This document shows, in pieces, positions 1-23,865 of a DNA stretch of 64,000 nucleotides. How positions within the stretch are numbered: position 1 is the stretch's first letter; every line of letters starts with the position of its first letter. Where the stretch lies: positions 1-64,000 of IMG/VR virus record IMGVR_UViG_3300020050_005097. One strand, 5' to 3'. The notes under the pieces are model-generated. The model saw nothing but the letters and a program-made list of their open reading frames with translations, did no database searches and had not been told where the DNA came from. The translations under genes and the position numbers were made by a program. This stretch comes from a virus (lineage: Duplodnaviria; Caudoviricetes).

Positions 1-2329
1 GGCGTTCTAATGGAGCATTACGTTCAGCAAGTCTTAACTTTGCAACCAGGGACTTCACTTCAGAGGCGTATGTCTTAGCTGCTGACTCAGAGTACTTAGA
101 CTTCGGAACACTAAGAGACGCAAGACGTGCCTTGTTACCCAAGTCTTTAAGTCTATTGGAATGATCAGCATAAATACTCTCAATACGAGTACCAGAAGAT
201 AGGGTGTGTGCATCTTTAGTATTAGCAAGAGCCTTTACTACAGAGGTATTTGGAATCACCTTACCGGTCTTAGGGTGGGTATAGGTACGTCCCGTTTGAT
301 CATAGACTCTTTCACCAGTCTTAGGATCAATCGACCCACCCTTAGACGCCTTACGAAGATCCTGTTGAGGGACGTGTATATCAGCCCCTGCTCTAGAGAT
401 CAACGTAGATGCGCCACCAGAACCACGTGGGCCCTGATACTTAAGCTTCAACTCCGCAATGTTGTGGTCAATAGCAGACTGTCTGAAGTTAAGCCCATGC
501 TTCTCGGCATCAATAACTACCATAGAATGACGGACGGCCCGTGCTAACTCATCAGTAGACGCCTTCTTAATTGTCATGTCAGTAATGAGGTTACTGATCT
601 CGCCCATCTGTGCTTGGGTCTGACTCTTAGTCATCCTCTTCATACCTGGGTACTCTTTGTACTGGTGTTGAGGATCAAAGTTCTTAAGCTTCTCAAGAGC
701 GGCAGTATTCTTAACCTTGCCGTCCCTATTAGGAATCACAAGAACCGTATCACCATCAAAGTCAGCGCCAGACAAACGTTCTGCTACACTATGGTGAATA
801 CCAACAGCATCACGAGCCTGCTTAAGAAGAGTCTTAGCTTCCTTGTTTCTGTTGTTAACAGTAAGCTCAGGAATCTCGAACGTCCCACCATGAGGATGTC
901 TAATCAGAACAACACGTTCGCCCTGTGCATAGTTGGGCGCATAGATCTCTGTAGGCTTCATACTAGAGATAGGTAGAATCACATGATGCCCATGTGTACC
1001 CGGAATAGCAGCTGCCTTAAGATGTACAGCAGCAGAATCAGATTCATCACCAAAGTCTTCTAACAGCTTCCTCTTAACTTCAGGATTTGTTAGTTCAGAG
1101 ATTCTCTTGAATTCTTCTTGTCGCTGTTTAAAGGTTAGATCTAATTGCCTCTTAGCAAGGGTGGGGTTCTGCTTAGAAAGCATCTGCGACGACAGAGTTC
1201 GTGACCATTCAGACCACTTACCTTCATCATTCACAATGTTCATAGCAGAGGTGACAACTTCTTTACCATCTATCTTCTCGATAATCTGGTCTTTAATGTT
1301 GGCACCATACGGGTTGTCTTTATCAATCTTACCCGTCTTCTTAATGGTCTTCAATGGTTTCAGAGCATCAAGTTTATTACCAGTGTCAGACTTGTTGGTA
1401 TTAAACTGAATGTCCACACCCTTAGGTAGATCGTGCTTATACACAGCCATACCCTTAAGGTAATGCGTGCCATCTACAGTAACACGAACCTGTGCATAAC
1501 TTGCCCCACCAATAGACACATCTTTAACACCAGGTCGAACAAAGAGAACGCCGTCCGCTTTGTTGCCACCATCAGGACCATAAACAACCTGAACCCGCTT
1601 AGAATCAATCGACAGAGGCGTCTTAATCCCTAATTGCGTTCGCCCAAGATCCTTAGATCGACTAGCAATTTGTTGGATGTTGAACTTGTTCTGAGCAACT
1701 TGACCCCACTCAGTACCTGGAGGAGCCAACACCTTAACATTGGTCTTCTTACCAGTACCCAACTGCTCGACAGGAACTGAGTGTAACGAGTATCCTTCTT
1801 CACGAAGCATTGCAACAGCGCCATCAAGAGTGCTCTTAGTGATACCGTTGTGGTGCTCTACACCCTTACCAACATCGATGTATGTCTTCTTTGCGACCTG
1901 CTCTTTAAGCATTTCGGCAGTCGTAGTAAGAATACTGGCCTTCTCTTTTGCGCCAGGAGCAAGTAGTGCTCGAACGCTAGACTCACCAGGAAGACCCATC
2001 TTCTTAGCGATGGCCGGGTTAGAAAGACCCTTATCCTTAAGACGCTGGGCTTGGTCCTGTTGTGCCTGCTTCTGTTCGTTCTTAGCGATCTTCTTAGCAG
2101 CTCGAAGCTGTGTAGTAGAGAAATGCTCGGTAACGTTACCCTGTTCATCATGAATGTCAAAAGCTTTACAGATCTCAACAGGAGACATTCCCTGTTTCTC
2201 GAGATCACCAATAACCTCAAGAAACTTCTTGTTACGACTGGATTGAGAGTTACCTGATCCCCATGGGTATCGACCGCTACGTCTCAGGATTCCGTAGTGG
2301 GCAAGATATGCATCTTCATCAATGATCAC
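1..2329 (-). CDS. Putative single-subunit two-barrel (DFDGD) RNA polymerase, YonO/RdRP-like, with N-terminal HTH; 3' end outside window
   Basis: Hand translation from GTG at 2329 (overlaps upstream TAG): MIIDEDAYLAHYGILRRSGRYPWGSG... Frame appears open to the window edge (776 codons; segments translated by hand, and no in-frame ORF with a stop is in the track). Contains VVLIRHPHGGTFEIPEL and LSGADFDGDTVLV (DFDGD at 749-763), plus HTH-like GLSNPAIAKKMGLPGESSVRALL. Confidence 0.75.
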   Translation of the reverse strand, partial: MIIDEDAYLAHYGILRRSGRYPWGSGNSQSSRNKKFLEVIGDLEKQGMSPVEICKAFDIHDEQGNVTEHFSTTQLRAAKKIAKNEQKQAQQDQAQRLKDKGLSNPAIAKKMGLPGESSVRALLAPGAKEKASILTTTAEMLKEQVAKKTYIDVGKGVEHHNGITKSTLDGAVAMLREEGYSLHSVPVEQLGTGKKTNVKVLAPPGTEWGQVAQNKFNIQQIASRSKDLGRTQLGIKTPLSIDSKRVQVVYGPDGGNKADGVLFVRPGVKDVSIGGASYAQVRVTVDGTHYLKGMAVYKHDLPKGVDIQFNTNKSDTGNKLDALKPLKTIKKTGKIDKDNPYGANIKDQIIEKIDGKEVVTSAMNIVNDEGKWSEWSRTLSSQMLSKQNPTLAKRQLDLTFKQRQEEFKRISELTNPEVKRKLLEDFGDESDSAAVHLKAAAIPGTHGHHVILPISSMKPTEIYAPNYAQGERVVLIRHPHGGTFEIPELTVNNRNKEAKTLLKQARDAVGIHHSVAERLSGADFDGDTVLVIPNRDGKVKNTAALEKLKNFDPQHQYKEYPGMKRMTKSQTQAQMGEISNLITDMTIKKASTDELARAVRHSMVVIDAEKHGLNFRQSAIDHNIAELKLKYQGPRGSGGASTLISRAGADIHVPQQDLRKASKGGSIDPKTGERVYDQTGRTYTHPKTGKVIPNTSVVKALANTKDAHTLSSGTRIESIYADHSNRLKDLGNKARLASLSVPKSKYSESAAKTYASEVKSLVAKLRLAERNAPLER

Positions 2330-3186: not shown

Positions 3187-3211
3187 TATATTAGCCCATG
3201 TTATTGCTGCG
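3187..3211 (-). promoter_or_regulatory. Conserved phage promoter motif copy 1 (heads VRR-NUC/Cas4/RNAP operon)
   Basis: CGCA GCAATA ACA TGGGC TAATATA. Confidence 0.7.
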
Positions 3212-12650: not shown

Positions 12651-12675
12651 CATCTTAGCCCATGTAAAACCTGCG
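12651..12675 (-). promoter_or_regulatory. Promoter motif copy 2
   Basis: CGCA GGTTTT ACA TGGGC TAAGATG. Confidence 0.75.
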
Positions 12676-12714
12676 AGAAGAACATGACCCTTGTGTTACG
12701 GGTCAGAGGTTCTC
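12675..12714 (-). terminator. Intrinsic terminator, AGAAC...GTTCT family
   Basis: gagaagaac-atgaccc-loop-gggtca-gag-gttctc. Confidence 0.65.
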
Positions 12715-12727
12715 AGAACGTACTTCT

Positions 12728-12901
12728 CTACTTCTTGTCCATGAGCTTCACGAGCTCGGGGTTCTTCTTGATGGCCTCCACCATGGTGTGGTAGAACGAC
12801 TTGTCGATGGCGGTCAGCAGCATTCGCGCGAGCACGAAGCCGATGCCGAACTTGAAGCCGTTCTTGACGGTGAAGATGTTCTTCGAAGTGGTCTCGATCA
12901 T
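12728..12901 (-). CDS. Cassette gene, 57 aa, hydrophobic segment
   Basis: MIETTSKNIFTVKNGFKFGIGFVLARMLLTAIDKSFYHTMVEAIKKNPELVKLMDKK; below track cutoff. Confidence 0.75.
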   Translation of the reverse strand: MIETTSKNIFTVKNGFKFGIGFVLARMLLTAIDKSFYHTMVEAIKKNPELVKLMDKK

Positions 12902-12934
12902 GGGGACTCCTGGGAGTTAGATGGATGAGTGTTC

Positions 12935-12959
12935 CATCTTAGGGCTTGTTAATTGTGCG
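12935..12959 (-). promoter_or_regulatory. Promoter motif copy 3
   Basis: CGCA CAATTA ACA AGCCC TAAGATG. Confidence 0.75.
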
Positions 12960-13028
12960 AGAGAAATGTAATACCCGTTGGGTATTTTGATATTCGTTTG
13001 TGTAACAGGTATTACATCCAGGACGGCG

Positions 13029-13130
13029 TCAGTTGCGGTTTGACCAGTGGCGTTGTCGCCTTCGGGCATCGTACGCAGCTCCGCTGATAACTAGTGCGGG
13101 CGCGATGATCCAGAAGAGAACTTCGTTCAT
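13029..13130 (-). CDS. Cassette gene, 33-aa membrane peptide
   Basis: MNEVLFWIIAPALVISGAAYDARRRQRHWSNRN; GGAG RBS. Confidence 0.65.
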   Translation of the reverse strand: MNEVLFWIIAPALVISGAAYDARRRQRHWSNRN

Positions 13131-13156
13131 GGGTTTCTCCTCTCTGTGGTAGGTCC

Positions 13157-13181
13157 TATTACAGGCCATGTTATTACTGCG
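13157..13181 (-). promoter_or_regulatory. Promoter motif copy 4
   Basis: CGCA GTAATA ACA TGGCC TGTAATA. Confidence 0.75.
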
Positions 13182-13232
13182 AGAGGAAGAAAAGGGTATG
13201 ACCGGTTGGTCAGGGACCCCATTTCGGTGCTT

Positions 13233-13421
13233 CTACTTCTGGAGGGTGCTGAACCAGAACTTCACGTACTCGCGACGCTCTTCGCTGTTGCGGGGCAACG
13301 GGTGTCCGGGGTCCGCCTCTTCGATCTGACCGATGACGGTGATACCGAGGGTGAACATACCGTACACGACGGTTGCTCCAACAGCAGTTCCTGCGGCGAA
13401 AACGACGATGTTCTTGAACAT
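13233..13421 (-). CDS. Cassette gene, 62 aa, N-terminal TM helix
   Basis: MFKNIVVFAAGTAVGATVVYGMFTLG... Confidence 0.7.
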   Translation of the reverse strand: MFKNIVVFAAGTAVGATVVYGMFTLGITVIGQIEEADPGHPLPRNSEERREYVKFWFSTLQK

Positions 13422-13446
13422 GATGTACTCGTTTCTGTAGAGGTGC

Positions 13447-13471
13447 TATTATACCCCTTGTTATCCTTGCG
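13447..13471 (-). promoter_or_regulatory. Promoter motif copy 5
   Basis: CGCA AGGATA ACA AGGGG TATAATA. Confidence 0.75.
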
Positions 13472-13505
13472 AGAAGAAAAAAGGTAGCCGATGTTCTGGC
13501 TGCCT
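13472..13505 (-). terminator. Intrinsic terminator
   Basis: aggtagcc/ggctgcct stem (G-U on minus), then TTTTTTCTTCT. Confidence 0.7.
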
Positions 13506-13527
13506 CTATACATCTTTGCGTTGGTAA

Positions 13528-13653
13528 CTAGAGCCTTCTCTGATGATGCACCGTATAGACGATCCACCAGATCACCATGCTACCCAAGAGGGCGGCTGCG
13601 GTGATGTTCGGATGGGTGTCGATCATGTCGGCGACATACGTGAAGAGGTTCAT
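13528..13653 (-). CDS. Cassette gene, 41-aa membrane peptide
   Basis: MNLFTYVADMIDTHPNITAAALLGSMVIWWIVYTVHHQRRL. Confidence 0.65.
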   Translation of the reverse strand: MNLFTYVADMIDTHPNITAAALLGSMVIWWIVYTVHHQRRL

Positions 13654-13681
13654 TAGCTTACCTTTCGGCAGGCGGATGTGT

Positions 13682-13706
13682 CATTATACCCCATGTTAAA
13701 TATGCG
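13682..13706 (-). promoter_or_regulatory. Promoter motif copy 6
   Basis: CGCA TATTTA ACA TGGGG TATAATG. Confidence 0.75.
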
Positions 13707-13708
13707 TG

Positions 13709-13744
13709 AGAGAAGAACATAACCCGTGTGGGTCAGCGGTTCTC
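13709..13744 (-). terminator. Intrinsic terminator, AGAAC...GTTCT family
   Basis: agaagaacataacccgtgtgggtcagcggttctc, near-identical to 14369-14405. Confidence 0.7.
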
Positions 13745-13747
13745 AGA

Positions 13748-13963
13748 TCAGGGGTTGATTTCCCGTAGGTAGTCGTGGTCCGAGCACGATGCGTGCATGA
13801 GCATGAGCATCCGCATCTTGGCGAATTCCATGGGCGTCACGGTCCACTCACTCGTACTGGTTGGTCCAGTGATGGTGAGCTTCACGCTGTCGTCCAGGTC
13901 TTCGATCTTGATGTCGATGTCATTCCCAAGCTCGTTCACGAACTCGGTTTCGGCAGATGCCAT
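13748..13963 (-). CDS. Cassette gene, 71 aa
   Basis: Start moved to MASAETEF (AGAAAGAGG RBS). Confidence 0.7.
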   Translation of the reverse strand: MASAETEFVNELGNDIDIKIEDLDDSVKLTITGPTSTSEWTVTPMEFAKMRMLMLMHASCSDHDYLREINP

Positions 13964-13984
13964 TTGGGGCCTCTTTCTGTGGTC

Positions 13985-14009
13985 CATTATACCACATGTT
14001 AAATATGCG
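13985..14009 (-). promoter_or_regulatory. Promoter motif copy 7
   Basis: CGCA TATTTA ACA TGTGG TATAATG. Confidence 0.75.
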
Positions 14010-14022
14010 TGAAAGAAAACCC

Positions 14023-14304
14023 TCAGCCCCTGTTAAGGGACTGCGGGAGTTGACTGATCGAACGTTGGGCGATTTGCAGGTGCATATTGATTTCATACTG
14101 CTTGTGGTCGCGCTCCTGCTTCGCCTCATGTACCGCTACGAGTCCGGACCAACGGGCATCTTCAGCGTCCTGCTTAGCCGTTACATCGGAAACCAGGTGG
14201 TTCACGGTAACGACAACCGAGGAGGTTGAGGTGGTGTTGGGCGCAGACTGCAGAGCAATCAAGGCGAAGAAGAGTACGAACAAGTAGCGAAATGCTATTT
14301 TCAT
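14023..14304 (-). CDS. Cassette gene, 93 aa, signal peptide/TM
   Basis: MKIAFRYLFVLFFALIALQSA... Confidence 0.65.
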   Translation of the reverse strand: MKIAFRYLFVLFFALIALQSAPNTTSTSSVVVTVNHLVSDVTAKQDAEDARWSGLVAVHEAKQERDHKQYEINMHLQIAQRSISQLPQSLNRG

Positions 14305-14332
14305 TGCGTTTCTCCGATTGTTTGACGGTGTC

Positions 14333-14357
14333 TATTATATGCCTTGTGAATCGTGCG
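14333..14357 (-). promoter_or_regulatory. Promoter motif copy 8
   Basis: CGCA CGATTC ACA AGGCA TATAATA. Confidence 0.75.
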
Positions 14358-14368
14358 AGAAGATATGT

Positions 14369-14405
14369 AAAAAGAAGAACATAACCCGTGTGGGTCAGAG
14401 GTTCT
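14369..14405 (-). terminator. Intrinsic terminator, AGAAC...GTTCT family
   Basis: aaaaagaagaacataacccgtgtgggtcagaggttct. Confidence 0.7.
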
Positions 14406-14427
14406 GTAAATCTCTAGATGTAAGCGG

Positions 14428-14634
14428 TTACATGTTGCGAACAATTTCGTTCGTCGTGGCGGTCGCCAACAACGCCTCGCTCACGTCGATGATATCGAGC
14501 ATTGTGGCAATCTTCATGTCGTCCAGCTCCTCCTGTGTTTGGGGGATTTGGTCGACATCGATCGTGTTCAACAGCTCGAGCCAGTTGATGAGGTCGGAGT
14601 GGATGGTGATGGCGCGGGGGACGTCTTTGAGCAT
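14428..14634 (-). CDS. Cassette gene, 68 aa acidic
   Basis: GGAG RBS, strongly C/G-ending codons. Confidence 0.7.
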   Translation of the reverse strand: MLKDVPRAITIHSDLINWLELLNTIDVDQIPQTQEELDDMKIATMLDIIDVSEALLATATTNEIVRNM

Positions 14635-14666
14635 GATGTGCTCCGTTTCGGTCTAGGCGGATTTCC

Positions 14667-14691
14667 TATTATACACCATGTGAATCCTGCG
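14667..14691 (-). promoter_or_regulatory. Promoter motif copy 9
   Basis: CGCA GGATTC ACA TGGTG TATAATA. Confidence 0.75.
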
Positions 14692-14692
14692 T

Positions 14693-14742
14693 GAGAAAAG
14701 AAAAAGAGAGGCCATGTGCGGGGGTTGTGATGGCCCCTCTTT
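14693..14742 (-). terminator. Intrinsic terminator
   Basis: agaggccat...atggcccctct imperfect stem, followed by TCTTTTTCTTTTCT on minus strand. Confidence 0.6.
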
Positions 14743-14800
14743 CTGAAATCAGGCCATGATGCGTCTCCTTGATCTAGGTGGGCGAAGCATGGTGGGGTTT

Positions 14801-14825
14801 CATTACAGCCCTTGTGATTCCTGCG
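14801..14825 (-). promoter_or_regulatory. Promoter motif copy 10 (cassette holds only an ATG-GCC-TGA minigene)
   Basis: CGCA GGAATC ACA AGGGC TGTAATG. Confidence 0.75.
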
Positions 14826-14826
14826 T

Positions 14827-14862
14827 GAGAAAAGGAAATGTCGTGTTGCTTATGACATTTCC
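14827..14862 (-). terminator. Intrinsic terminator
   Basis: ggaaatgtc/gacatttcc 9-bp stem, then TTTTCTC. Confidence 0.7.
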
Positions 14863-14898
14863 AATGTACTCGTACTGCGGTTGGTTCTACTGCGGGGC

Positions 14899-15000
14899 TT
14901 ACTTGTTGCGGATGTATCGGATCGCCCATGCGATCGTCACGATGGGGATCATGGCGATCATGGTGATCATGAACATGGCTTCGAACAGGAAGTCGAGCAT
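14899..15000 (-). CDS. Cassette gene, 33-aa membrane peptide
   Basis: MLDFLFEAMFMITMIAMIPIVTIAWAIRYIRNK; GGAGG RBS. Confidence 0.7.
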   Translation of the reverse strand: MLDFLFEAMFMITMIAMIPIVTIAWAIRYIRNK

Positions 15001-15025
15001 GGTATTTCCTCCGGTGTGTGGGTAC

Positions 15026-15050
15026 TATTATACCCCTCGTTATTCCTGCG
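15026..15050 (-). promoter_or_regulatory. Promoter motif copy 11
   Basis: CGCA GGAATA ACG AGGGG TATAATA. Confidence 0.7.
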
Positions 15051-15090
15051 CCCCTATGATTAAGATTAGTGGAGGAGCGTCAGATATAAC

Positions 15091-16053
15091 TCACGAGTAC
15101 TTCAGCGGGAACACCGGAAGGTCCACAAGCGTTTCACCCTGGTTGCCACGGAAGTCGTAGCCCATACGGATCAGATCCTGAATGCGGTTGCTAGTCGCGT
15201 CATCGTCAACAGACCCATCGGGCTTGCGAACCGGCTCGACGTAGGTCTTCATACCGCTGAGAACAGTGTAAAGCTTTCCATCCAGTTCATTGACACCCAT
15301 CCACTTGTCGTCGTTGGCGGCGATGGTCTCCTGGAGAGCCTTCACAATCCGGTCGCCAAGGGCGTTGAACATTGGATTGGTAGCGGCAACATACTCTTCG
15401 GGGGTCATATCATCTTCTCCGTTTAGGGTGAGGTACTTAACAGTAATATCGTGGATGCGCTTTCCGTTCTTCTTACCAATATCCCAATGCGCGTTTTCAG
15501 GGGTATGGTTGTGATCTGTCCAGCCATCGTAGTCGATGAACTCCTGAGCGCCCATTCGCAGAGGAGAGTCGTACCGAGCCAGGATGATTCCTTCATTGGC
15601 ACCCCAGAAACGAGGGTACTTCTCAATGTCGAAGTCATGCCCAGCCTTCTTCGTGGCAGCCAGCATGTAACCGACGGCCTCATATGTACCGTCGTCCCAC
15701 TCTTCAGCGGCGAAGCCCATAACCTCAGCCTGGATATTGGGCCCAGACCGGTTGGTATCAGCTCCACCAGGAGCATTCTCCAGGGTATAACCACCGACGT
15801 TAAGGGGGAGTAACTGCCAGATGAGTTTGTTACCCACAAGGAAATGAGGGAGCCCACGACCGGGATCACGTGCCCATGAGGAAATGAGCATGTTAGCGAT
15901 TGCTAGAGTTGAGCCGGTCTCCGCGGTATGCAGAGTAAACTTAGGTCCTTCATTGGGGCGAATATCCAAGCCGGCATTGATCGGGTGGTAAATGACCTCA
16001 ATACCATGCGCTGCCGCAGGTGCTGGGTCGATCCATAGTGTATGTGCAGCCAT
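15091..16053 (-). CDS. Endolysin, N-acetylmuramoyl-L-alanine amidase (Amidase_2-like)
   Basis: FTLHTAE, PHFLV, NIQAEV, HNHTPENAHWDIG Zn-amidase motifs; GEDDMTPEE linker before C-terminal domain. Confidence 0.8.
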   Translation of the reverse strand: MAAHTLWIDPAPAAAHGIEVIYHPINAGLDIRPNEGPKFTLHTAETGSTLAIANMLISSWARDPGRGLPHFLVGNKLIWQLLPLNVGGYTLENAPGGADTNRSGPNIQAEVMGFAAEEWDDGTYEAVGYMLAATKKAGHDFDIEKYPRFWGANEGIILARYDSPLRMGAQEFIDYDGWTDHNHTPENAHWDIGKKNGKRIHDITVKYLTLNGEDDMTPEEYVAATNPMFNALGDRIVKALQETIAANDDKWMGVNELDGKLYTVLSGMKTYVEPVRKPDGSVDDDATSNRIQDLIRMGYDFRGNQGETLVDLPVFPLKYS

Positions 16054-16066
16054 GGAAACCTTTCTG

Positions 16067-16321
16067 TTAGTGTCTATTTACTAGACTCATTTGCTCGTGA
16101 TCGTGATCTACGTAATACAGCGTTTCGTAGCGATCATCGATTTCTACCGTCAGTTCAACGAGCCTTCCTCCTTCCAGAGGGTTTACCTCTCGGAGCATCC
16201 CAGACACAGGCGTGCCATCAGGGAGAGAAGTGTCAACGATATGGTCTAGCTGAAGCAGCAAAGACATGACGTTGTGGGTGGATCGAGGGTTTTCGATGTC
16301 GTACACCATGGTTACCAGCAT
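16067..16321 (-). CDS. Hypothetical protein
   Basis: GGAGG RBS. Confidence 0.55.
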   Translation of the reverse strand: MLVTMVYDIENPRSTHNVMSLLLQLDHIVDTSLPDGTPVSGMLREVNPLEGGRLVELTVEIDDRYETLYYVDHDHEQMSLVNRH

Positions 16322-16480
16322 TGGTTCCTCCTATAGAATTATGGGTCGAAAATGATTTCGGTTGGGTGCAACTCTACAGCACAAAACTCGCAAACAAGGA
16401 TTGGCGAACCCTCTGGGCAGTGTTTAAAACAACACTTCCGCCACATAGGACTCCACACCTCGGTTTTATAGATTCCACAC

Positions 16481-16786
16481 TTACTGCAAACTAGTTGGGG
16501 CTCCATCTTGCTCCTTAACGACGTGGTGGAATCCACCGGTGAAGTAACACATTGATGGAAGAGGTCCCTTCAATGCTCGACCACACACCATACATACCCT
16601 CCGCCGGAAATTTCTCCCGATGATTTCGTCGCCGTGAGTGCAGCGAATATGTTTGTGTTTACACACCCCTGGAATCCATCGCTGGAACCAGTTACCAGAC
16701 GCGCCACGTTTGTACGCTTTGTCCTGCTGATCAAGCATGTATTTCATGCGTTTTCGTTGCTCTTCATCGTTCATGGCATCTCCCAA
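16481..16786 (-). CDS. Hypothetical Cys/His-rich protein
   Basis: CKH...CTH...CMVC. Confidence 0.55.
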   Translation of the reverse strand: MGDAMNDEEQRKRMKYMLDQQDKAYKRGASGNWFQRWIPGVCKHKHIRCTHGDEIIGRNFRRRVCMVCGRALKGPLPSMCYFTGGFHHVVKEQDGAPTSLQ

Positions 16787-17331
16787 TCTCCCGGCAGAGT
16801 ATCGAAGACCGTACCCTGAATGTTGAAGTTCAAGACAAATTCGTTCACGACACGCTGCTTCTCAAGATCCCCAAACGAAATGGCTCCGATGCTTGGGGTA
16901 ATCCAACCCATGAGAGCTCCGTAAGAAGTTCGTTCGAACCCAAGGGCATCGTAGACTTCGTTGAGGAAGACATGGCCACGGGCGTGAAGGAGATCATTGA
17001 AGTAGTTCAATTGACACCGGAGAAACAGCTTGTTAAGTTCGCCATTCTTCTTCCAATGACGAGAAGTCGAGTCGAACACTCGGTCATGTTTCGACATGAG
17101 CTGCGTCGGGTTTTGGTCCTCTTCGAACTTCTTCGGCATGATCAACTCTACTACGTCAATAGGCGTGAAGGTCCAACCGCGGGAACCATTGTACAAAGTA
17201 TCAAACGTGGCCGTAAAACTATGGTTATCGCCACAGATATCGATGATGGTACATTCGTTCAAATCTCTTGACGAGAGAAGAACGTCTCCAACACGAAGGC
17301 ATGTGGCAAAGGTCTTAATTGTACGAGTCAT
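16771..17331 (-). CDS. Protein with C-terminal DUF6353-like domain (paralogue of 45258..46112)
   Basis: [38 protein letters not shown] vs [38 protein letters not shown]. Confidence 0.7.
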   Translation of the reverse strand: [186 protein letters not shown]

Positions 17332-17336
17332 TATTA

Positions 17337-17355
17337 CTCCTTAGTTAGGTGAATT
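17337..17355 (-). promoter_or_regulatory. Start-associated motif AATTCACCTAACTAAGGAG
   Basis: Identical copies at 17988-18006 and 18362-18380; variants at 22505, 23057, 25000, 28876, 31529, 35692; always fused to the RBS. Confidence 0.75.
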
Positions 17356-17509
17356 AGAAATCGTTGACAAGGCCGGCTAAGCCTACGTCGTCATGGTTTC
17401 GACTTTCATCGACAAACCACGTGTGCATTTTAGTAGTACCCCCTGGTGTAGCGCAGCAAAGCCACACAAGAACTTGCTTGTAGTCGTTGGCTAGATACAT
17501 GAAGTCCAT
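17354..17509 (-). CDS. 51-aa protein ending HDDVGLAGLVNDF (C-terminal motif family)
   Basis: Hand translation; TAATG-coupled to upstream gene. Confidence 0.6.
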   Translation of the reverse strand: MDFMYLANDYKQVLVWLCCATPGGTTKMHTWFVDESRNHDDVGLAGLVNDF

Positions 17510-17982
17510 TACTCTGGTGTCCGATCGATAATCCGATATGGATGTTCGGTATCGAAATCGCCGGTGTGTGGGAAGAACGGTTTGAAATATGACCCGGGGT
17601 AGGTCTTACTCTCAAGGGCAAAGAACTCACACGCTTCGTGAGTCTCCACATCAACAATCCGGTCCAGCAACCACCGGCGCATATCGGCTTCAGAGAACAT
17701 CACCGCTTCGGGAGGGATTACAAACGTATGCTGCACGACGAATGGCCGATCGATATCTTGGAATGTGATTGTGTCCGTAACGTCTCGATAATCCATACTG
17801 AAACTCATATCAGGAACACGCCGATTCGATTCGTGTCTACCAGTCGAATCCGTGCACTTGATGTCGATCCGAAAGCGGAATGGTTCAAGGTAGTTGAACG
17901 CCCAACCCTCTTTGTAGTGCAACCGCTTGATCATGCCGATCAGATCTGGCGATGGTGATAGTTCGTCTGTATGTTGAACCAT
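17509..17982 (-). CDS. Conserved actinophage-type hypothetical protein
   Basis: Preceded by start-associated motif; WLLDRIVDVETHEACEFF. Confidence 0.65.
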   Translation of the reverse strand: MVQHTDELSPSPDLIGMIKRLHYKEGWAFNYLEPFRFRIDIKCTDSTGRHESNRRVPDMSFSMDYRDVTDTITFQDIDRPFVVQHTFVIPPEAVMFSEADMRRWLLDRIVDVETHEACEFFALESKTYPGSYFKPFFPHTGDFDTEHPYRIIDRTPE

Positions 17983-17991
17983 TATTACTCC

Positions 17992-18198
17992 TTAGTTAGG
18001 TGAATTAACCTTCCTACTCAGCCCCTCGGGCTTATGCTTGTGGCAGAACTTGTTATTGAACCGATCCTGCCAAATCACGTCACCCTCACAAACCCCAAGC
18101 GCCATGGAGCACCAACGATAAAAGCATCCGTTGTCGGGGCCCATAGCATACTCCTTGCCCTCATAGACCATGAAGGGCCACTTCTCGTCGGTGTCCAT
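17992..18198 (-). CDS. Hypothetical Cys-rich protein
   Basis: GGAG RBS. Confidence 0.5.
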   Translation of the reverse strand: MDTDEKWPFMVYEGKEYAMGPDNGCFYRWCSMALGVCEGDVIWQDRFNNKFCHKHKPEGLSRKVNSPN

Positions 18199-18389
18199 TA
18201 CATCTCCTACTACCGCTTCTTACGAAGCCTCAAGATGTGGCCAAGCCCATTCTGAAGGATTTGTGGGTCTGGGGTGTTCTGGACGACCTCGTCTTTCTGC
18301 CGCTGGCTCTTCGGGGTGTTCTTACGGGGAAGGTACTTACCATGCTTTAACTTCATTATTGCTCCTTAGTTAGGTGAATTGATAGAGGG

Positions 18390-18463
18390 TGTTAGGACTT
18401 AGGGCTAACGCGCCCAAGGAGAGACGCTTGAATAGTTTCCACATCAAGACCCATATCCTAACA
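18390..18463 (-). ncRNA. Structured element immediately 3' of tRNA-Leu
   Basis: Closing stem UGUUAGGA/UCCUAACA enclosing two hairpins (CUUGA/UCAAG and CUUGGGC/GCCCUAAG). Confidence 0.45.
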
Positions 18464-18465
18464 AG

Positions 18466-18549
18466 TGTCCGCGGTGGGATTCGAACCCACACAGCCGTTA
18501 GGCCCAGGGTGTTTAAGACCCCTATGTCTACCTATTCCATCACGCGGAC
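18466..18549 (-). tRNA. tRNA-Leu(UAA)
   Basis: Acceptor GTCCGCG/CGCGGAC, anticodon loop CT-TAA-AC, long variable arm, GTGGG-TTCGAAT-CCCAC T arm; no encoded CCA. Confidence 0.92.
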
Positions 18550-18555
18550 AAACCT

Positions 18556-18828
18556 TCACATCACGAGCTTGCACATCTCTCGGATGATTTGTAGAACCAG
18601 AGTAACTGAAGCCTTATATAGCGGATCGTTAATTAATCGATCTACATTGGGAGTCCAGTCATCATGATCGTGCGGGATGATAGTGGCATATTCACGCCAA
18701 CTTGGCCCGTAGCAAGCCTCGACCCTTTCGGCAAGAGGAACCACCCGATCCCATGTGCAATGGTAGGTGAAATGCGTCACAAGTCCACGAGCTCCTTGGA
18801 GAACCGGATCGTATGTCTTGATCCCCAA
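18556..18828 (-). CDS. Hypothetical protein
   Basis: Operonic ORF. Confidence 0.5.
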   Translation of the reverse strand: MGIKTYDPVLQGARGLVTHFTYHCTWDRVVPLAERVEACYGPSWREYATIIPHDHDDWTPNVDRLINDPLYKASVTLVLQIIREMCKLVM

Positions 18829-18974
18829 CCCATCCCACCCTCAAATCGTCGCCAACCCTCAGCACACTTTCGATACGTGCTGTAACCGTGAGAGGTCGCT
18901 AGAACCTTCCCATTTCTGGCCTTGTACCGATAGGCGAACTTCTTGTCTTCGGTGATGAAGAATTCGACAATCAC
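18777..18974 (-). CDS. YegP/DUF1508-like protein
   Basis: FAYRYKARNGKVLATSHGY. Confidence 0.65.
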   Translation of the reverse strand: MIVEFFITEDKKFAYRYKARNGKVLATSHGYSTYRKCAEGWRRFEGGMGWGSRHTIRFSKELVDL

Positions 18975-19651
18975 GATGCCTCCTCTTGGGCTTTACGAAC
19001 CTTGCGTTCCTGCCTGGCGTTCTGGTACTGGCGGTAACCAAGAACACAAGTAGCGCAGTGGCATCCGTAGTTCACGTAACCACTGCGCCCATGCGTCGGA
19101 GGAGTTGCCCCCTTACGACGCTCCCGGCCCTTCTTGTTCGAGATGGACCCCTGGAGCTTGCACTCAGGGCATCGACACCGCCAATTGGTGTAACCGGATA
19201 AAGTCCCGTGCGGGATACGATCTTCGGACTGTGACTCCATCCACTTCTTATGACGATCAGAGTTCGCTTTCGTGCACGGCTCGCATTTGCACCCGTTTTG
19301 GTAACACTGAACGGTGCCGTGGGTGTCTTTCTTCAACACTAACGGGGCCGTTTCAATCCCAAACCGTCGCATAACGTCGCAAACAGTGTCGTATGGATAC
19401 CCGGATCGTTCCGCGATCTCGTGCCGAGTAAGACCTTCGTCGGCCAACTCAGAAAAGATCTTGAACCGCTTTTCGGCCTCTATCTTTTGTGACCGAACAG
19501 TAACACCAGCCCGATTGGCGATCTGACGAACGCGCTCTCGGGTAAGTCCATACGAATCCCCAATTGCCTGGAGAGTTTCCCCCGCAGCAACCCGCCGTGC
19601 AATTTCAGCATTACGTTCGACGTTCTGTGGCTTTGGTCCACGTTTGCCCAT
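18971..19651 (-). CDS. HTH (sigma region 4-like) DNA-binding protein with three HG..Y..C-C-C zinc repeats
   Basis: GETLQAIGDSYGLTRERVRQI, a second HTH, then HGTVQCYQNGCKCEPC / HGTLSGYTNWRCRCPEC / HGRSGYVNYGCHCATC. Confidence 0.75.
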   Translation of the reverse strand: MGKRGPKPQNVERNAEIARRVAAGETLQAIGDSYGLTRERVRQIANRAGVTVRSQKIEAEKRFKIFSELADEGLTRHEIAERSGYPYDTVCDVMRRFGIETAPLVLKKDTHGTVQCYQNGCKCEPCTKANSDRHKKWMESQSEDRIPHGTLSGYTNWRCRCPECKLQGSISNKKGRERRKGATPPTHGRSGYVNYGCHCATCVLGYRQYQNARQERKVRKAQEEAS

Positions 19652-19665
19652 GTTGAGCTCCTTTG

Positions 19666-19974
19666 TTAGGCCTCTTCTTGAGGCGTGTACTGTCCTCTAG
19701 TCACTCGTCTGATGGTGTCGGAAGATACCCCGAACAACTTGGCGATGGAATGCTGAGTCTTGAAGTTGCGATGCAGCCGCTTGATTTCAGCAACCTGCTG
19801 TGCGGTCAGTTTCGGCTTCCCGTAGCTGTTCATGCCGTCGCTGGTACGTTTGTAAACCACGTCATAGTGGGCTTTACAATACCCCGCCACATTACCTCTG
19901 GCCCTACAATCCTCGTACTTGCATTGCTTTGAGAGACTCACTTCGACCTCCAGAAGTTCTTGATCAACCACCAT
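19666..19974 (-). CDS. Zinc finger + HTH protein
   Basis: CKYEDC...YCKAHY; TQHSIAKLFGVSSDTIRRV. Confidence 0.7.
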   Translation of the reverse strand: MVVDQELLEVEVSLSKQCKYEDCRARGNVAGYCKAHYDVVYKRTSDGMNSYGKPKLTAQQVAEIKRLHRNFKTQHSIAKLFGVSSDTIRRVTRGQYTPQEEA

Positions 19975-20140
19975 GCGGTTCCGAGCACTGCCTTACGGTC
20001 CAGCCACGTCACCCGGGTGGAATATGACGACTTCACAAGCAGCCGCCCGTTGATTTCGATGAACAACAACTCGTTGGTGCAATTCCAAGCAGCGCAACAG
20101 CAATGCGCCGTGCGTCTGTGTACTTCCGAACGTTTCTCAC

Positions 20141-20488
20141 TCACGAATGCTCCCTAAAATTATGAAGCTCGAGAGCTTCTTGGGCGTCTGGTCTTGTTCC
20201 GTACTTCTTCGACTGCCAGATGCAGTGATAGCAACGGGCAATATAGTCACGGTTCATTTCGTAGACAACCTCGGAAACAACCGTGTGATCGATCTTGTGC
20301 TCTTCAATTTTCCTGGGCTTACGCAGACGATCGTGATCCGTGTAAGCATGAGCGACCTTCTTGACGGTCAACCCATAAGCTGCCGCAACCTCCTTAACAC
20401 TGACCCCAGAATCAATGAGATCAATGAGCCGGTCGGTCGACGACTTTCTGTTCCATGGATCCGGTTGGGATCCTGCTGAATGGAGCAT
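20141..20488 (-). CDS. HTH + zinc-finger protein
   Basis: GVSVKEVAAAYGLTVKKVAH; ARCYHC...H. Confidence 0.55.
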   Translation of the reverse strand: MLHSAGSQPDPWNRKSSTDRLIDLIDSGVSVKEVAAAYGLTVKKVAHAYTDHDRLRKPRKIEEHKIDHTVVSEVVYEMNRDYIARCYHCIWQSKKYGTRPDAQEALELHNFREHS

Positions 20489-20657
20489 TTTGCTTCCTCT
20501 TCTAGTGCCTGTAGGATACTTTCTTGCAGGTTGTGGATGAAGGCATGGATTTCCTCGAAGTCTTCCGTGCTGTAATCCAGCAAACCCTCACTCAGAAACG
20601 AGACGTTGTTGTCATCGGCGAGATGGATAATTATTTCTTCTCGGTCCATACGGCTCC

Positions 20658-21038
20658 CTAGTTAGGTTCCATACGTGGAAGGGTTGTGATTTGACAATCA
20701 AGGCCGAGGCTGTTGAAGATGTTCTTGATGTTCTTTGCCCCTACCGGGTTCTGTGAGTGGACCAGAATAACACAATCATGCAGGATCCCAGAAGGATCAT
20801 ACTTCTGGATCAGCGCAACCTGCTTTGCCACCAACGCCGCATCACTTTTACTTGCACTACCAAGATCATGATCAAACCAGATCTGAGTGATATCCTCGGT
20901 GGCATCTGAAGGCAGGAAGTTTGTCTCGGTTGCCCATTCGGCAAAGAACAACATCGCTTCCTGGCTCGTGCGAAGATATACTACTTCCGTTTCCCACATG
21001 TTGGCAAACGTTCTTTCGTCATCGATTACGACAATCAT
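20658..21038 (-). CDS. Cyclic-phosphate-processing receiver-like domain protein
   Basis: IVVIDDER, IWFDHDLG, VHSQNPVGAKNI; start moved to MIVVIDD. Confidence 0.65.
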   Translation of the reverse strand: MIVVIDDERTFANMWETEVVYLRTSQEAMLFFAEWATETNFLPSDATEDITQIWFDHDLGSASKSDAALVAKQVALIQKYDPSGILHDCVILVHSQNPVGAKNIKNIFNSLGLDCQITTLPRMEPN

Positions 21039-21056
21039 TTTGACTCCTAGGTTAGG

Positions 21057-21092
21057 GAAAGAAAGCAACACCCCGTGTTGATTGGGGTATTG
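21057..21092 (-). terminator. Intrinsic terminator
   Basis: gcaacacccc/ggggtattgc stem, then TTTCTTTCC. Confidence 0.65.
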
Positions 21093-21110
21093 CGGGGACT
21101 TCTGTGGGGG

Positions 21111-21377
21111 TTACTTGTGGGTGTTCTCGTACTTGTCGATTTCCTTCTGGCTTTCGTCCAAGATGATCTGTAGCTTGATCTTCTGGTCGATGATATCGAC
21201 GAACATCTCGTTCAAGTCGACCATGTTTGGTTCCGAAATGGTGGTGAATTCGGATTCGGTATGGCGGATCTTGGCGAGAAGCACGTCGCAATCAGCGAGG
21301 CCTCGGATGGCTGCGGACTTGTTGGAGCGGGCCATGTTGTAGGCGAGCTCGTCAAGCATTGAGTGTATATCTTTCAT
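21111..21377 (-). CDS. Cassette-type gene, 88 aa
   Basis: Between promoter copy 12 and terminator; C/G-ending codons. Confidence 0.7.
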   Translation of the reverse strand: MKDIHSMLDELAYNMARSNKSAAIRGLADCDVLLAKIRHTESEFTTISEPNMVDLNEMFVDIIDQKIKLQIILDESQKEIDKYENTHK

Positions 21378-21397
21378 TGCAACTCCTTCTGTTGTCC

Positions 21398-21422
21398 TAT
21401 TATAGGAGTTGTTATTCTTGCT
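21398..21422 (-). promoter_or_regulatory. Promoter motif copy 12 (AGCA variant)
   Basis: AGCA AGAATA ACA ACTCC TATAATA. Confidence 0.65.
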
Positions 21423-21962
21423 AGGTCAAAACGAATTCGAGATTAGGTTATCGAGTTTCCGAATCGCACGACCCATTCGCTCAATATCCCGCTCGACAAA
21501 CCCAATCAGATGCTGCGGCTTACCGTTACGTCGCATGTTGCGGACGTTGTTGATCTTGTCCTTGCGTCGACGATTGACTGAACTTCGATAGATGATGATC
21601 TCACTCAAAGTAAAGGTACCGTCGATTGGCTTGTTTAGCTCTTCGTCAGTGAATAACATTAGACCCTTTCCATCGCGGCGATCTTCTTACGCGCCATTCG
21701 AATATGTCGTTGGATCATGTAGTACGTAAGTGAAAACAGCGTTACAGCAAACCCCACTCCGCAAATAAGGGCTGCGATAAACGCCACCATCACGATAAAG
21801 ATGGTTTCCATTGCTCTACTCCATTTCTTGCTCCTGGATGGAATCCGCAGAGAAGTTGGATGATTCGATTGCAATGCGTGCAGTCCCACGAAGGATATAG
21901 GTCGCCGATTGGGGCCACCATGTGCTTGCTTCGTTGGAATATGACTTCCTGGTATTCAAGCA

Positions 21963-22127
21963 TTAAAACCCCTGGACTAGTGCGGTCATTGGAATTCCGT
22001 CGTGTGTTTCCCAATCGTGTAACTCATCCATGAAAACGGTTTTTACACGATATAGACATGTTCCATCCCATAGAACCCATGAAATACAGAACATCTCTAT
22101 TGTGAAATCTGTTCCGACGAAGATCAT
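21963..22127 (-). CDS. 54-aa protein ending HDGIPMTALVQGF
   Basis: Hand translation; TGATG/TAATG coupling on both sides. Confidence 0.65.
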   Translation of the reverse strand: MIFVGTDFTIEMFCISWVLWDGTCLYRVKTVFMDELHDWETHDGIPMTALVQGF

Positions 22128-22282
22128 CAGAAGTCCTGCACTAATGCAGATAGAGGGACGTCATCGAACCAAGGGGTGTCAAGTAGAATTTCTCCCACAT
22201 TAAGCATTCTCATATGAGTCCCCTTGAAGTGCATACGGAATGACAACCAACGTGGACTTGATACAACAAAGACTCTGATCAT
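22127..22282 (-). CDS. 51-aa protein ending FDDVPLSALVQDF
   Basis: Hand translation; TGATG coupling. Confidence 0.65.
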   Translation of the reverse strand: MIRVFVVSSPRWLSFRMHFKGTHMRMLNVGEILLDTPWFDDVPLSALVQDF

Positions 22283-22497
22283 CAGAACCCACTAACCAAT
22301 GCCGACAGCGGGATACCATCTCTGGTCTCGCCCTTGTTCCGCCAGAAGGTGTTCAGACCTCTCTTCGCCATGAGGAAGCGATGCACAAAACCCGGATGGA
22401 TTTGCCCGTCATATAGCAAGAACCATTCCTGCCAGATATCTTCCAACTTAACCCCGCCTTGTTCTTGCGGTTTAAGTGGTGCGACTCTCAACGCCAT
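22282..22497 (-). CDS. 71-aa protein ending RDGIPLSALVSGF
   Basis: Start-associated motif and RBS upstream. Confidence 0.7.
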   Translation of the reverse strand: MALRVAPLKPQEQGGVKLEDIWQEWFLLYDGQIHPGFVHRFLMAKRGLNTFWRNKGETRDGIPLSALVSGF

Positions 22498-22520
22498 TAC
22501 GTTTCTCCTTTGTAGGTGAA

Positions 22521-22907
22521 TTAGAACACAACCCAATCGGGCTGCACTTCGATCAGATCAACGGGCTCTTCGCCAGGAGCCCACTGGCAGTAATTTACCT
22601 CCAACCCATGCGGAGCAAGATGATTATGCACACGGTGCTCGCACCCGTCAGCTTTCCATCCGAACTCTCCGCCATAGATGGTCCAGATCTCTACTGGCTG
22701 TGGTTCGCAATGACAATCTGGTTCGGGCATCCTCTTTCCACGGTTATCAAATGCTTCATCAGCTGTGTCGAATAGCAACGCACTCAGAATATCGGAGGTG
22801 CCGCTGTAGACAGTCCACTTGATAGTGCCGTCTTCGAGTCTTACCAAGGCAGATCCGCTAGACATCAGACCTCCGTAAGGTTGTCGATATGGAACATCAT
22901 CAAGCAT
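22521..22907 (-). CDS. Hypothetical protein
   Basis: Operonic ORF. Confidence 0.55.
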   Translation of the reverse strand: MLDDVPYRQPYGGLMSSGSALVRLEDGTIKWTVYSGTSDILSALLFDTADEAFDNRGKRMPEPDCHCEPQPVEIWTIYGGEFGWKADGCEHRVHNHLAPHGLEVNYCQWAPGEEPVDLIEVQPDWVVF

Positions 22908-23106
22908 CTGGCAGTACCATCGTCCCCAGCGTCACCAACCCAAAATACAATTCGTAGACTTGGGAATGCGTGTGAAACATCAACCACATACCCAGTTCCC
23001 CAGAACTCTGGCTCATGCTTTGCTCGCACTTCTGCGAATTGTTTGAACATTCACTTCCCCTTTGTAGGTGAATTGAAAAAAGATGAAGCCGTGATTTGGC
23101 TTCTCT

Positions 23107-23131
23107 CATTATAGCGCTTGTTATTGCTGCG
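23107..23131 (-). promoter_or_regulatory. Promoter motif copy 13
   Basis: CGCA GCAATA ACA AGCGC TATAATG. Confidence 0.75.
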
Positions 23132-23138
23132 AGATCAG

Positions 23139-23235
23139 CATAAGTAGTAGGAACGGCTCAGCATAGCACCGTGGTTTGGCCTCGGCTCCACCGTCGTGGA
23201 TTTCGCCTACACTCTAGAAATGCCCACTACTTATG
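23139..23235 (-). ncRNA. Structured element immediately 3' of tRNA-Lys
   Basis: Perfect 10-bp closing stem CAUAAGUAGU/ACUACUUAUG; inner hairpin UCCAC-GACG-GUGGA. Confidence 0.45.
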
Positions 23236-23240
23236 ATCTG

Positions 23241-23314
23241 TGCCCCCGGTGGGATTCGAACCCACGATCTGCAAATTAAAAGTTTGCTGCCTTAACCAGC
23301 TTGGCTACAGGGGC
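23241..23314 (-). tRNA. tRNA-Lys(UUU)
   Basis: Acceptor GCCCCTG/CGGGGGC, anticodon arm GCAAA-CTTTTAA-TTTGC, T arm GTGGG-TTCGAAT-CCCAC; no CCA. Confidence 0.92.
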
Positions 23315-23538
23315 TAAACCGTTACTTCAAATGCCGAATGTTGATCACGTCTCGAGGAGGAACACCGAACAAACCCTCACCATCCTCGAACATCACCATG
23401 TCGCCAGAAATATCAGCAACCGTCTTTCCAGTAGGCACACCAATACCAACAACAGAAATCGGCATGTCGTCGGCGACCATGAGGCAGTACTCGACACGGA
23501 TTTCTCCGTCACGGTTACGCCACGTCAACTCAATAGCT

Positions 23539-23865
23539 TTACCCACGGACGTTTCTCCGTTCGTTGTATGTGGTGGCGAATTCGTCCCAGGTCTTGACAG
23601 AGTTACCAATGGCAATCCGGTTGTTCTCTTGGAACTTCGGGTATTCGACGATCATGATGTCGCTAAGCACCTCTTCTTCAACCGCGCCCTGCGACACCAC
23701 CCACAGCGCACCATCCTCGAACAAGATCTCGAAATAGATGCCAAACCATGCGCTGAAGCCATCCGCGTAATAAACATACCCGGGGACGCCCTCAACCTGG
23801 ATGTTCACCGCGGGGATGAACGTCTCACCCAACCGCACACAATTGCCTACCTGCTCAGGTTTCAT
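23539..23865 (-). CDS. Hypothetical protein
   Basis: Operonic ORF. Confidence 0.55.
   Translation of the reverse strand: MKPEQVGNCVRLGETFIPAVNIQVEGVPGYVYYADGFSAWFGIYFEILFEDGALWVVSQGAVEEEVLSDIMIVEYPKFQENNRIAIGNSVKTWDEFATTYNERRNVRG

Follow-up and report, generated by a model that had tools for sequence, protein, structure and literature searches.

A predicted single-chain two-barrel RNA polymerase and an accompanying promoter-like motif in an uncultured siphovirus

The DNA considered here comprises bases 1–64,000 of the 76,307-bp IMG/VR record IMGVR_UViG_3300020050_005097, a virus of the Caudoviricetes (Duplodnaviria), and is referred to throughout as the window. At its left edge lies a truncated gene of the protein family PHROG 4291, the product of which is predicted from its modelled fold to be a catalytically competent single-chain RNA polymerase, with a beta-like barrel followed by a beta'-like barrel. 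A 24-nt promoter-like motif recurs ahead of non-structural genes of the same phage, and it accompanies the polymerase gene in relatives that infect two bacterial phyla. The protein is probably a DNA-dependent RNA polymerase that starts at this motif and frees non-structural transcription from the host sigma factor.

The truncated gene, its family and its fold

In a listing of open reading frames (ORFs) that allows open ends, the gene appears on the minus strand as a stop-free frame of 776 codons (positions 2–2329) with a GTG start and an open 3' end. One base of this GTG also belongs to the TAG stop of the exonuclease gene upstream, and the stretch GGAAGGGG precedes the start. An identical start is called in the metagenomic protein P0003, a full-length relative of 906 residues that is 98% identical across all 776 aa. 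An earlier reading, made from the sequence alone, had assigned to this frame an RNA polymerase signature composed of R-x-P and DFDGD motifs, and translation confirms each of its positions, namely the GTG at 2329, a frame of at least 776 aa and DFDGD at codons 523–527 (nt 749–763). The latter motif lies within LSGADFDGDTVLV (aa 519–531), while RHPH occupies residues 477–480 within VVLIRHPHGGTFEIPEL (aa 473–489); no in-frame stop precedes the motif in the translation. The same reading called the frame hidden. The frame itself is real, but it was hidden merely because the contig ends inside the gene, and it is open at the edge because the window starts at base 1 of the record. Judged by relatives, the window lacks about 130 codons, the third helix-turn-helix (HTH) included, as well as an 88-codon gene and a short tail. 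The contig that carries P0003 (L020), with DNA 89.5% identical to the window end, supplies both the 130 missing codons and the 88-codon gene.

The PHROG 4291 profile, labelled “RNA-dependent RNA polymerase”, matches the protein with E = 0 and 1070.5 bits (residues 4–776 on profile positions 7–778 of 909). The window gene is a truncated new member of this known, database-annotated family, with catalysis predicted from sequence. The family is large, with at least 8,000 proteins in a 90%-identity collection and at least 2,010 metagenomic clusters at 50% identity (of which 860 score below 1e-30). By tblastn the gene turns up in 250 isolate records, among them 95 for Arthrobacter, 55 for Gordonia, 54 for Streptomyces and 13 for Lactococcus. 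The novelty implied by the sequence-only reading is not upheld: beyond its PHROG entry and RefSeq name, the family appears as the “1706” family among YonO-like proteins (Ruprich-Robert and Thuriaux 2010; PMC2919709). Koert et al. (2021; 10.1101/842583) also described the same protein, with HTHs at both ends, a DxDGD loop, the YonO and crAss motifs and an HHpred match to Pfam RdRP at 95.7% probability, as a signature gene of an actinophage supercluster together with Lactococcus and Faecalibacterium phages. The likelihood of misannotation as an HTH protein was correctly foreseen, as most of the 250 isolate records name the homologue “helix-turn-helix DNA-binding domain protein”; the RefSeq versions read “RNA-dependent RNA polymerase”, and FP_oengus carries a “putative RNA polymerase”.

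Among 44 diverse family members, HTH_23 is detected in all 44, Sigma70_r4_2 in 40 and Sigma70_r4 in 29, and the Pfam RdRP domain reaches E < 0.01 in 24 (best 1.7e-6). In the window protein this domain (PF05183) aligns with residues 514–616 at 21.1 bits, under the gathering cut-off of 23.8. A phmmer search of the polymerase against PDB returned nothing, and the family profile returned only HTH proteins from the PDB sequences, with P23-45 gp96 and a phage beta' insignificant around DFDGD (E 0.5–1.2). Megablast against phages gave a single 124-bp patch in Gordonia DJ phages.

In an alignment of 88 homologues, 43–98% identical, the invariant positions comprise D259, Q280, R282, K292 and G293 in the first barrel, R477, P479, H480, G521, D523, D525, G526 and D527 in the second, and M575, G576, N580, D584, D607 and K610 in the two subsequent long helices. 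Both R-x-P and DFDGD are among these columns, as the sequence-only reading would have it, and the signature is not a chance occurrence because its residues are invariant in all 88 homologues. According to PMC2919709, every two-barrel polymerase shares eight residues, made up of the DxDGD aspartates, the R and P of R-x-P and, in the other barrel, a further Asp with a pair of basic residues; each of the eight has an invariant candidate in the aligned polymerase sequences.

The fold was modelled with AlphaFold2 for P0003 on the basis of the 88-homologue alignment, giving a mean predicted local distance difference test (pLDDT) score of 86.7 and a predicted template modelling score of 0.78. All significant Foldseek matches of this model in PDB are two-barrel polymerases, in the order QDE-1 (E 3.7e-9), the Thermus phage proteins gp64/gp62 (about 1e-6), RDR2, P23-45 gp96, crAss gp66 (6.7e-4) and then beta'/Rpb1 chains. 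Over residues 235–745, the best VIA-align matches are QDE-1 and RDR2 (PDB 2J7N, 7Y7S, 7W82, 7RQS), with Z 15.7–16.7 over 340–370 residues, of which RDR2 reaches Z 16.7 (354 residues, 4.1 Å) and QDE-1 Z 16.6 (360 residues, 4.2 Å). P74-26 gp62 (Z 14.0) and P23-45-type gp64 (Z 12.7) follow over the same residues, and Rpb1 matches residues 437–636 with Z of about 11. The top matches in BFVD include P23-45 gp64 and phage “RdRP” entries. From N- to C-terminus, the modelled protein consists of a disordered but conserved peptide (1–26), two small HTHs, an alpha/beta domain (about 127–235), the two-barrel core (235–745), a helical region and a third HTH (871–899).

The closest solved structures, along with the sub-threshold Pfam match, would agree with the RefSeq and PHROG name, that is, with an RNA-dependent RNA polymerase (RdRP) that might make double-stranded RNA or counter a host RNA-based defence. 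Such a role is nevertheless very improbable. The name derives from a Pfam family label with no assay behind it, and “RNA-dependent” is probably a misnomer. QDE-1 is reported to take DNA templates as well (PMC9508822), and the phage homologues YonO and gp66 are described as DNA-dependent (PMC5467207, 10.1101/2020.03.07.982082), as are gp64 and gp96 (10.1101/2022.12.01.518664). Additionally, the gene travels with HTH DNA-binding modules and with a DNA motif.

The 24-nt motif and the proposed function

The motif has the consensus CGCA-N4-W-N-ACA-N5-TATAAT. Searched as CGCA-N4-T-N-ACA-N5-TA-N-R-D-T with at most one mismatch, it occurs 21 times in the window against 0.36 expected, exclusively on the coding strand (none on the opposite strand) and within positions 3188–52910. 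The copies are intergenic, lie 6–45 nt ahead of a ribosome-binding site or start codon, and sit among non-structural genes; none lies in the 23-kb arm of the record that encodes packaging, head and tail proteins. In place of a -35 element, the motif has conserved upstream boxes at about -30 to -27 and -20 to -18 relative to TATAAT. Canonical -35/-10 promoters are not enriched in window positions 1–16000 (15 found against 20.2 ± 5.2 expected). Hairpin-plus-T terminators often precede the motif copies, and the arrangement is therefore one of one-gene cassettes.

The motif was found, on the coding strand only, in every gene-carrying relative tested, and these relatives infect Actinobacteria and Firmicutes. 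Copies number 10 in Avazak (Gordonia), 14 in ReqiPoco6 and about 17 in ReqiPepy6 (both Rhodococcus), 7 in LibertyBell and 11 in Bing (both Streptomyces), 7 in Mudcat (Arthrobacter, as a CGCG variant), 7 in Camille (Microbacterium) and 8 in L022, a contig whose polymerase is 88% identical. Lactococcus phage 1706 has about 8 copies as CACAnGTTTTACATAnnCTATAGT, with the variant CACA..TATAGT. The strict pattern finds no copies in the temperate Faecalibacterium phage FP_oengus, where a diverged variant was seen on reading the intergenic regions, with about 10 copies as CGCGAAAAAnnCA-N5-CTTTATGG (CGCG-A5-nnCA-N5-CTTTATGG). The copy that heads the polymerase operon is kept in position in L020, L022, Mudcat, ReqiPoco6 and FP_oengus. 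Among controls without the gene, ReqiDocB7, which shares the host of ReqiPoco6, gave one match, phiC31 and L5 none, and the A+T-rich sk1 scattered one-mismatch noise on both strands.

A precedent for such a pairing exists in Thermus phage P23-45, where gp64 and gp96 are each paired with a promoter motif of their own and relatives that lack the enzyme also lack the motif (10.1101/2022.12.01.518664). Few genes are conserved across the whole group, as listed by Koert et al. (10.1101/842583), and of these the polymerase alone has DNA-binding modules. Because of this precedent, the co-occurrence of gene and motif and the polymerase being the sole conserved DNA-binding protein, promoter-specific DNA-dependent transcription of the non-structural genes is the most likely function. 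The fold, the invariant catalytic residues, the family membership and the strand-specific co-occurrence of gene and motif across phyla are observed here, and the DNA template, recognition of the promoter by the polymerase itself and the timing of its action are inferred. The sigma-region-4-type HTH modules would read the upstream boxes of the motif, and the polymerase would start there, ahead of small early and middle genes and of its own operon.

Several points weigh against this assignment. The last box of the motif is, in most of the phages, a perfect housekeeping -10 hexamer, TATAAT being the consensus in both host phyla, and therefore the host holoenzyme could read the motif. The motif also precedes the operon of the polymerase itself, so that either the enzyme must arrive with the virion or the host polymerase must transcribe first. 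The copy at 3188 ends 6 nt before the called ATG, a poor fit to a start 7 nt past the -10. Regarding the protein, the equivalence of the candidates D259, R282 and K292 to D709, R738 and K743 of QDE-1 (PMC2919709) is inferred. The window copy is without its third, C-terminal HTH because the contig ends. Finally, the literature searched yielded no enzymology or transcript data for the PHROG 4291 family.

The first of these points leads to the strongest competing explanation, in which the motif is a host sigma-A promoter joined to a phage activator box, as in the MotA-dependent middle promoters of T4, and the protein merely activates through its HTHs or polymerizes for some other purpose. Besides the -10 identity in both phyla, this explanation can draw on the boxes at about -30 and -20 as possible activator-binding sites, on the sigma-4/LuxR-type HTHs of the polymerase and on the motif ahead of the polymerase gene itself. 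It is considered unlikely. The FP_oengus box CTTTATGG is without the A at the second position of the sigma-70 -10 element, and several copies in Bing and Camille (TTTAAT and TATGGT in place of TATAAT) likewise differ from a -10 at key positions. The catalytic residues are invariant across the family, and a pure DNA-binding role would not need them. The G+C content of the phages is far under that of their hosts (PMC5513430, PMC7302621), which fits host-independent expression.

Synthesis of RNA for replication, either as a primer or as an origin R-loop, in place of mRNA, is less probable still. An AEP primase is already present inside the 1241-aa replicase of the phage, and the counterpart of this replicase in 1706, the “four-in-one replicase” GP55, has primase activity (PMC12205980). 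Moreover, in a sister clade the polymerase gene lies in the head module beside the portal, away from the replication genes.

Possible virion carriage and a candidate partner gene

Beyond promoter-specific transcription, a more elaborate scheme is put forward tentatively. The polymerase may be head cargo, loaded through a DUF7211-like tag or the portal and injected with the genome, where it would read its own co-evolved 24-nt promoter through its sigma-4-like HTHs, with the phrog_4303 protein as its partner. Early transcription would then be host-independent from the first minute. The hints come from annotation, gene position, the N-terminal peptide and amino acid composition.

The depositors of Lactococcus phage 1706 (EU081845) labelled orf75 “structural protein” in a record that gives nearly all other genes as “unknown”, and the label of ReqiPoco6 gp106 is copied from it. 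Gene position is seen in a sister clade, of high G+C content, in which the polymerase core forms the C-terminal half of a protein of about 1,800 aa directly after, or fused to, the portal. In L017 the gene order runs from the large terminase through a 1789-aa protein and a 203-aa protein to an S78 protease and the major head protein. At its N-terminus the protein of 1789 aa has a Phage_portal domain (E 2.9e-29), and its residues 1050–1788 match positions 113–863 of PHROG 4291. L018 and L023 instead have a separate portal gene, followed with a stop/start overlap by a protein of 1809 or 1799 aa with the same linker and core, and their downstream genes match those of L017. All these forms are without the N-terminal peptide, the first HTH and the C-terminal HTH. 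As one architecture recurs in three samples with diverged sequences, the portal-adjacent form is not an assembly accident. Genes for internal head proteins, SPP1 gp7 for example, usually occupy the slot directly behind the portal gene. Within the N-terminal region of about 1,050 aa in this clade there is a phrog_8314 segment.

The N-terminal peptide of the polymerase (H11, G13, S18, G19 and R20 invariant in the 88 homologues) is predicted to be disordered, with pLDDT below 50 for residues 1–26 of the P0003 model. The N-terminus matches Pfam DUF7211 (PF23847) at 12.6 bits and E 0.096, under the 27-bit cut-off. Four small basic proteins that flank the terminase and portal match DUF7211 outright (E 8e-13 to 3.5e-7, 29.9–48 bits) and open with LAHYGVKGMKWGVR or FEHHGVxGMKWG (HYG/HHG-V-x-GMKWG). 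When a profile of the 88 polymerase N-termini was run against 972 ORF segments, the four DUF7211 ORFs ranked within the top 9, the best with E 0.063. Taken together, these sequence comparisons suggest that the polymerase N-terminus resembles the DUF7211 tag. One PHROG that matches the DUF7211 proteins is labelled “virion structural protein”, and the shared opening is a candidate head-cargo tag.

The polymerase also groups with virion proteins in its cysteine content. It has one Cys in 776 residues (0.13%), with a family median of 1.5 per approximately 900 residues. The tape measure and major tail protein have none, the portal 0.23% and the protease-capsid fusion 0.15%, while the helicase, replicase, terminase and exonuclease have 0.5–1.6%.

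Two apparent fusions were set aside as evidence. P0307 (L024 6001–12063) joins polymerase residues 1–559 to the final two thirds of a tape measure, and P0306 (L025/L026 6001–10968) joins replicase profile positions 1–1022 to the polymerase from profile position 291. As each partner is cut short where it meets the other, these are probably deletion genomes or chimeric contigs. The P0307 contig is reported from two samples, P0306 is found on two contigs from two runs, and the joints are in frame.

All six isolates tested carry a phrog_4303 gene next after the polymerase gene (E 1e-31 to 1e-39), and so does L025. In the portal-adjacent clade, the protein encoded next after the polymerase begins with a phrog_4303 domain and continues into a segment with matches to “virion structural protein” families. 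Retention of the pair in two quite different neighbourhoods suggests that the phrog_4303 protein is a physical or functional partner of the polymerase.

Related systems and genome context

The nearest relatives of the window gene are the PHROG 4291 proteins typified by 1706 ORF75, whose members come from the phages of Arthrobacter (AM/AU), Gordonia (DJ), Streptomyces (BI), Rhodococcus (CC) and Microbacterium (EL) and from Faecalibacterium FP_oengus. It resembles them in full-length homology (37–59% identity to isolates), domain order, motif and position, which is after the helicase, HNH, endonuclease and exonuclease genes and before the phrog_4303 gene at the right genome end. Unlike these isolates, the present phage is uncultured, with approximately 49% G+C, a genome of more than 76 kb, a best isolate identity of 58.8% and a truncated copy of the gene.

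YonO of SPbeta is likewise a single-chain two-barrel enzyme of about 100 kDa with DxDGD (PMC5467207), and is placed in the same broad YonO-like group (PMC2919709); within that group the 1706 proteins form a family separate from YonO (PMC2919709). Sequence searches gave no match to YonO, no YonO chain was among the PDB matches, and none was recognizable by name in BFVD. QDE-1 and RDR2, the best structural matches, differ in being eukaryotic RNA-silencing enzymes of 12–15% identity, without HTH modules and without any phage or promoter context. The non-virion enzymes P23-45 gp64 and P74-26 gp62 are likewise single-chain two-barrel phage RNA polymerases with a private promoter motif, and gp96 of P23-45, a tape-measure-fused virion RNA polymerase, demonstrates that two-barrel enzymes can be virion-borne. 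The Thermus phage enzymes differ in that no HTH modules were detected in those matches, in their phage lineage and in their unrelated promoter motifs. The crAss-like phi14:2 gp66 (PDB 6VR4), a two-barrel enzyme, and the virion RNA polymerase of N4 are both packaged, injected and responsible for starting early transcription. They are much larger (2,180 aa and about 3,500 aa, respectively), and the signs of virion presence are indirect in the case considered here. The N4 enzyme has a T7-like fold, unrelated to the two-barrel one.

Characterised single-chain two-barrel RNA polymerases are few, comprising YonO, crAss gp66, gp64 and gp96 of P23-45 and the QDE-1 type. PHROG 4291 is by far the most widespread family of this kind, given its metagenomic clusters and 250 cultured phages, and it combines easily grown hosts (Arthrobacter, Gordonia, Streptomyces and Lactococcus) with a candidate promoter that is sharply delimited. 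Should the enzyme recognise it unaided, it would be a sigma-free, promoter-specific polymerase of cellular fold and about 100 kDa, of use for orthogonal gene expression and in studies of the minimum needed to recognise a promoter, and hundreds of records annotated “HTH DNA-binding protein” or “RNA-dependent RNA polymerase” would be corrected. If it is virion-borne, the injected-polymerase strategy would extend to ordinary siphoviruses of Gram-positive bacteria. The window alone is a small gain, adding one further truncated member.

All genes of the phage are on the minus strand (Table 1). In phage orientation, the genome opens with small genes, an HNH gene, a virion protein, the large terminase, the portal and a protease-capsid fusion, continues with the major tail protein, a 1546-aa tape measure, minor tail proteins and many small genes, and closes with the 1241-aa primase-polymerase, helicase, HNH, endonuclease, exonuclease and polymerase genes. 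This is the layout of a siphovirus. The tape measure and major tail protein, the lack of a sheath and the modelled two-barrel fold agree with the compact phage RNA polymerase of a siphovirus that the sequence-only reading proposed. The genome is collinear with those of Avazak, ReqiPoco6, 1706, LibertyBell, Bing, Mudcat and Camille, in all of which the order endonuclease, exonuclease, polymerase is kept. The extended order, through the phrog_4303 gene to the genome end, is drawn from the window for the upstream genes and from L020, L021, L022 and six isolates for the downstream gene.

Table 1. Positions of the polymerase gene, its parts and other features discussed. Coordinates are those of the window unless a record or contig is named.
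Feature	Position	Strand	Remark
Polymerase gene, 776 of ~906 codons	2..2329	-	PHROG 4291; 98% identity to P0003
N-terminal peptide, aa 8-26, LAHYGILRRSGRYPWGSG	2252..2308	-	DUF7211-like candidate capsid-loading tag
First N-terminal HTH, aa 43-60	2150..2203	-	Weak Pfam HTH_23 match
Second N-terminal HTH, aa 93-112	1994..2053	-	HTH_38 match in P0003; model helices 104-111, 116-122
Two-barrel catalytic core (predicted), aa 235-745	95..1627	-	VIA-align, Foldseek
Beta-like barrel, aa 246-297	1439..1594	-	Invariant columns; model strands 246-249, 261-264, 278-285, 289-297
RHPH (R477, P479, H480) of beta'-like barrel	890..901	-	Translation, invariant columns
D523-F-D525-G-D527 metal-binding loop	749..763	-	Translation, invariant columns
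Motif copy heading endonuclease-exonuclease-polymerase operon	3188..3211	-	
20 further motif copies, CGCA-N4-W-N-ACA-N5-TAnnnT	12652..52910	-	Densest 12652-15050
Exonuclease	2329-2889	-	phrog_3953
Endonuclease	2834-3181	-	phrog_93
1241-aa helicase/AEP-primase/family-B polymerase	40216-43941	-	phrog_4210, E=0
Protease-capsid fusion, 681 aa	Record 64506-66551 (L002 506-2551)	-	
DUF7211 protein	Record 72250-72783 (L002 8250-8783)	-	
DUF7211 protein	Record 69494-70015 (L002 5494-6015)	-	
DUF7211 protein	Record 69030-69497 (L002 5030-5497)	-	
DUF7211 protein	Record 68667-69029 (L002 4667-5029)	-	
5'-open ORF, tail-fibre-like C-terminus	Record 76035-76307 (L002 12035-12307)	-	Other end of record
Sister-clade core proteins	L017 1866-7235; L018 229-5658; L023 3495-8894		

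Joining the ends of the record as a circle was tried and rejected as a way to complete the polymerase, because the far end holds a 5'-open ORF whose reading frame differs and which encodes a tail-fibre-like C-terminus in place of that of the polymerase. ReqiPepy6 has tail-fibre gene 1 at the corresponding left-end position. Despite a completeness estimate of 100%, the record is truncated at either end and is not permuted. Three independent contigs end 13–41 nt past the 88-codon gene, beside a G+C-rich hairpin, and such stops probably mark the physical genome end. The hairpin, a G-rich run, a short loop and a matching C-rich run 3' of the phrog_4303 gene (L020 about 6126–6141, L021 about 3474–3514), may be a terminator or a marker of the genome terminus. 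In the replicating form, the polymerase gene comes to lie immediately ahead of the structural arm. The polymerase gene and the phrog_4303 gene of contigs L025 and L026 are followed by connector, DUF7211 and terminase genes.

The acidic spacer of the protease-capsid fusion (about residues 150–305) contains many hydrophobic-x-His sites (LEH, VEH, AQH, MKH, VKH and LSH, the last of these twice). These resemble the LAH/FEH that opens the polymerase N-terminus and the DUF7211 tags, and they may be cleavage sites of the prohead protease.

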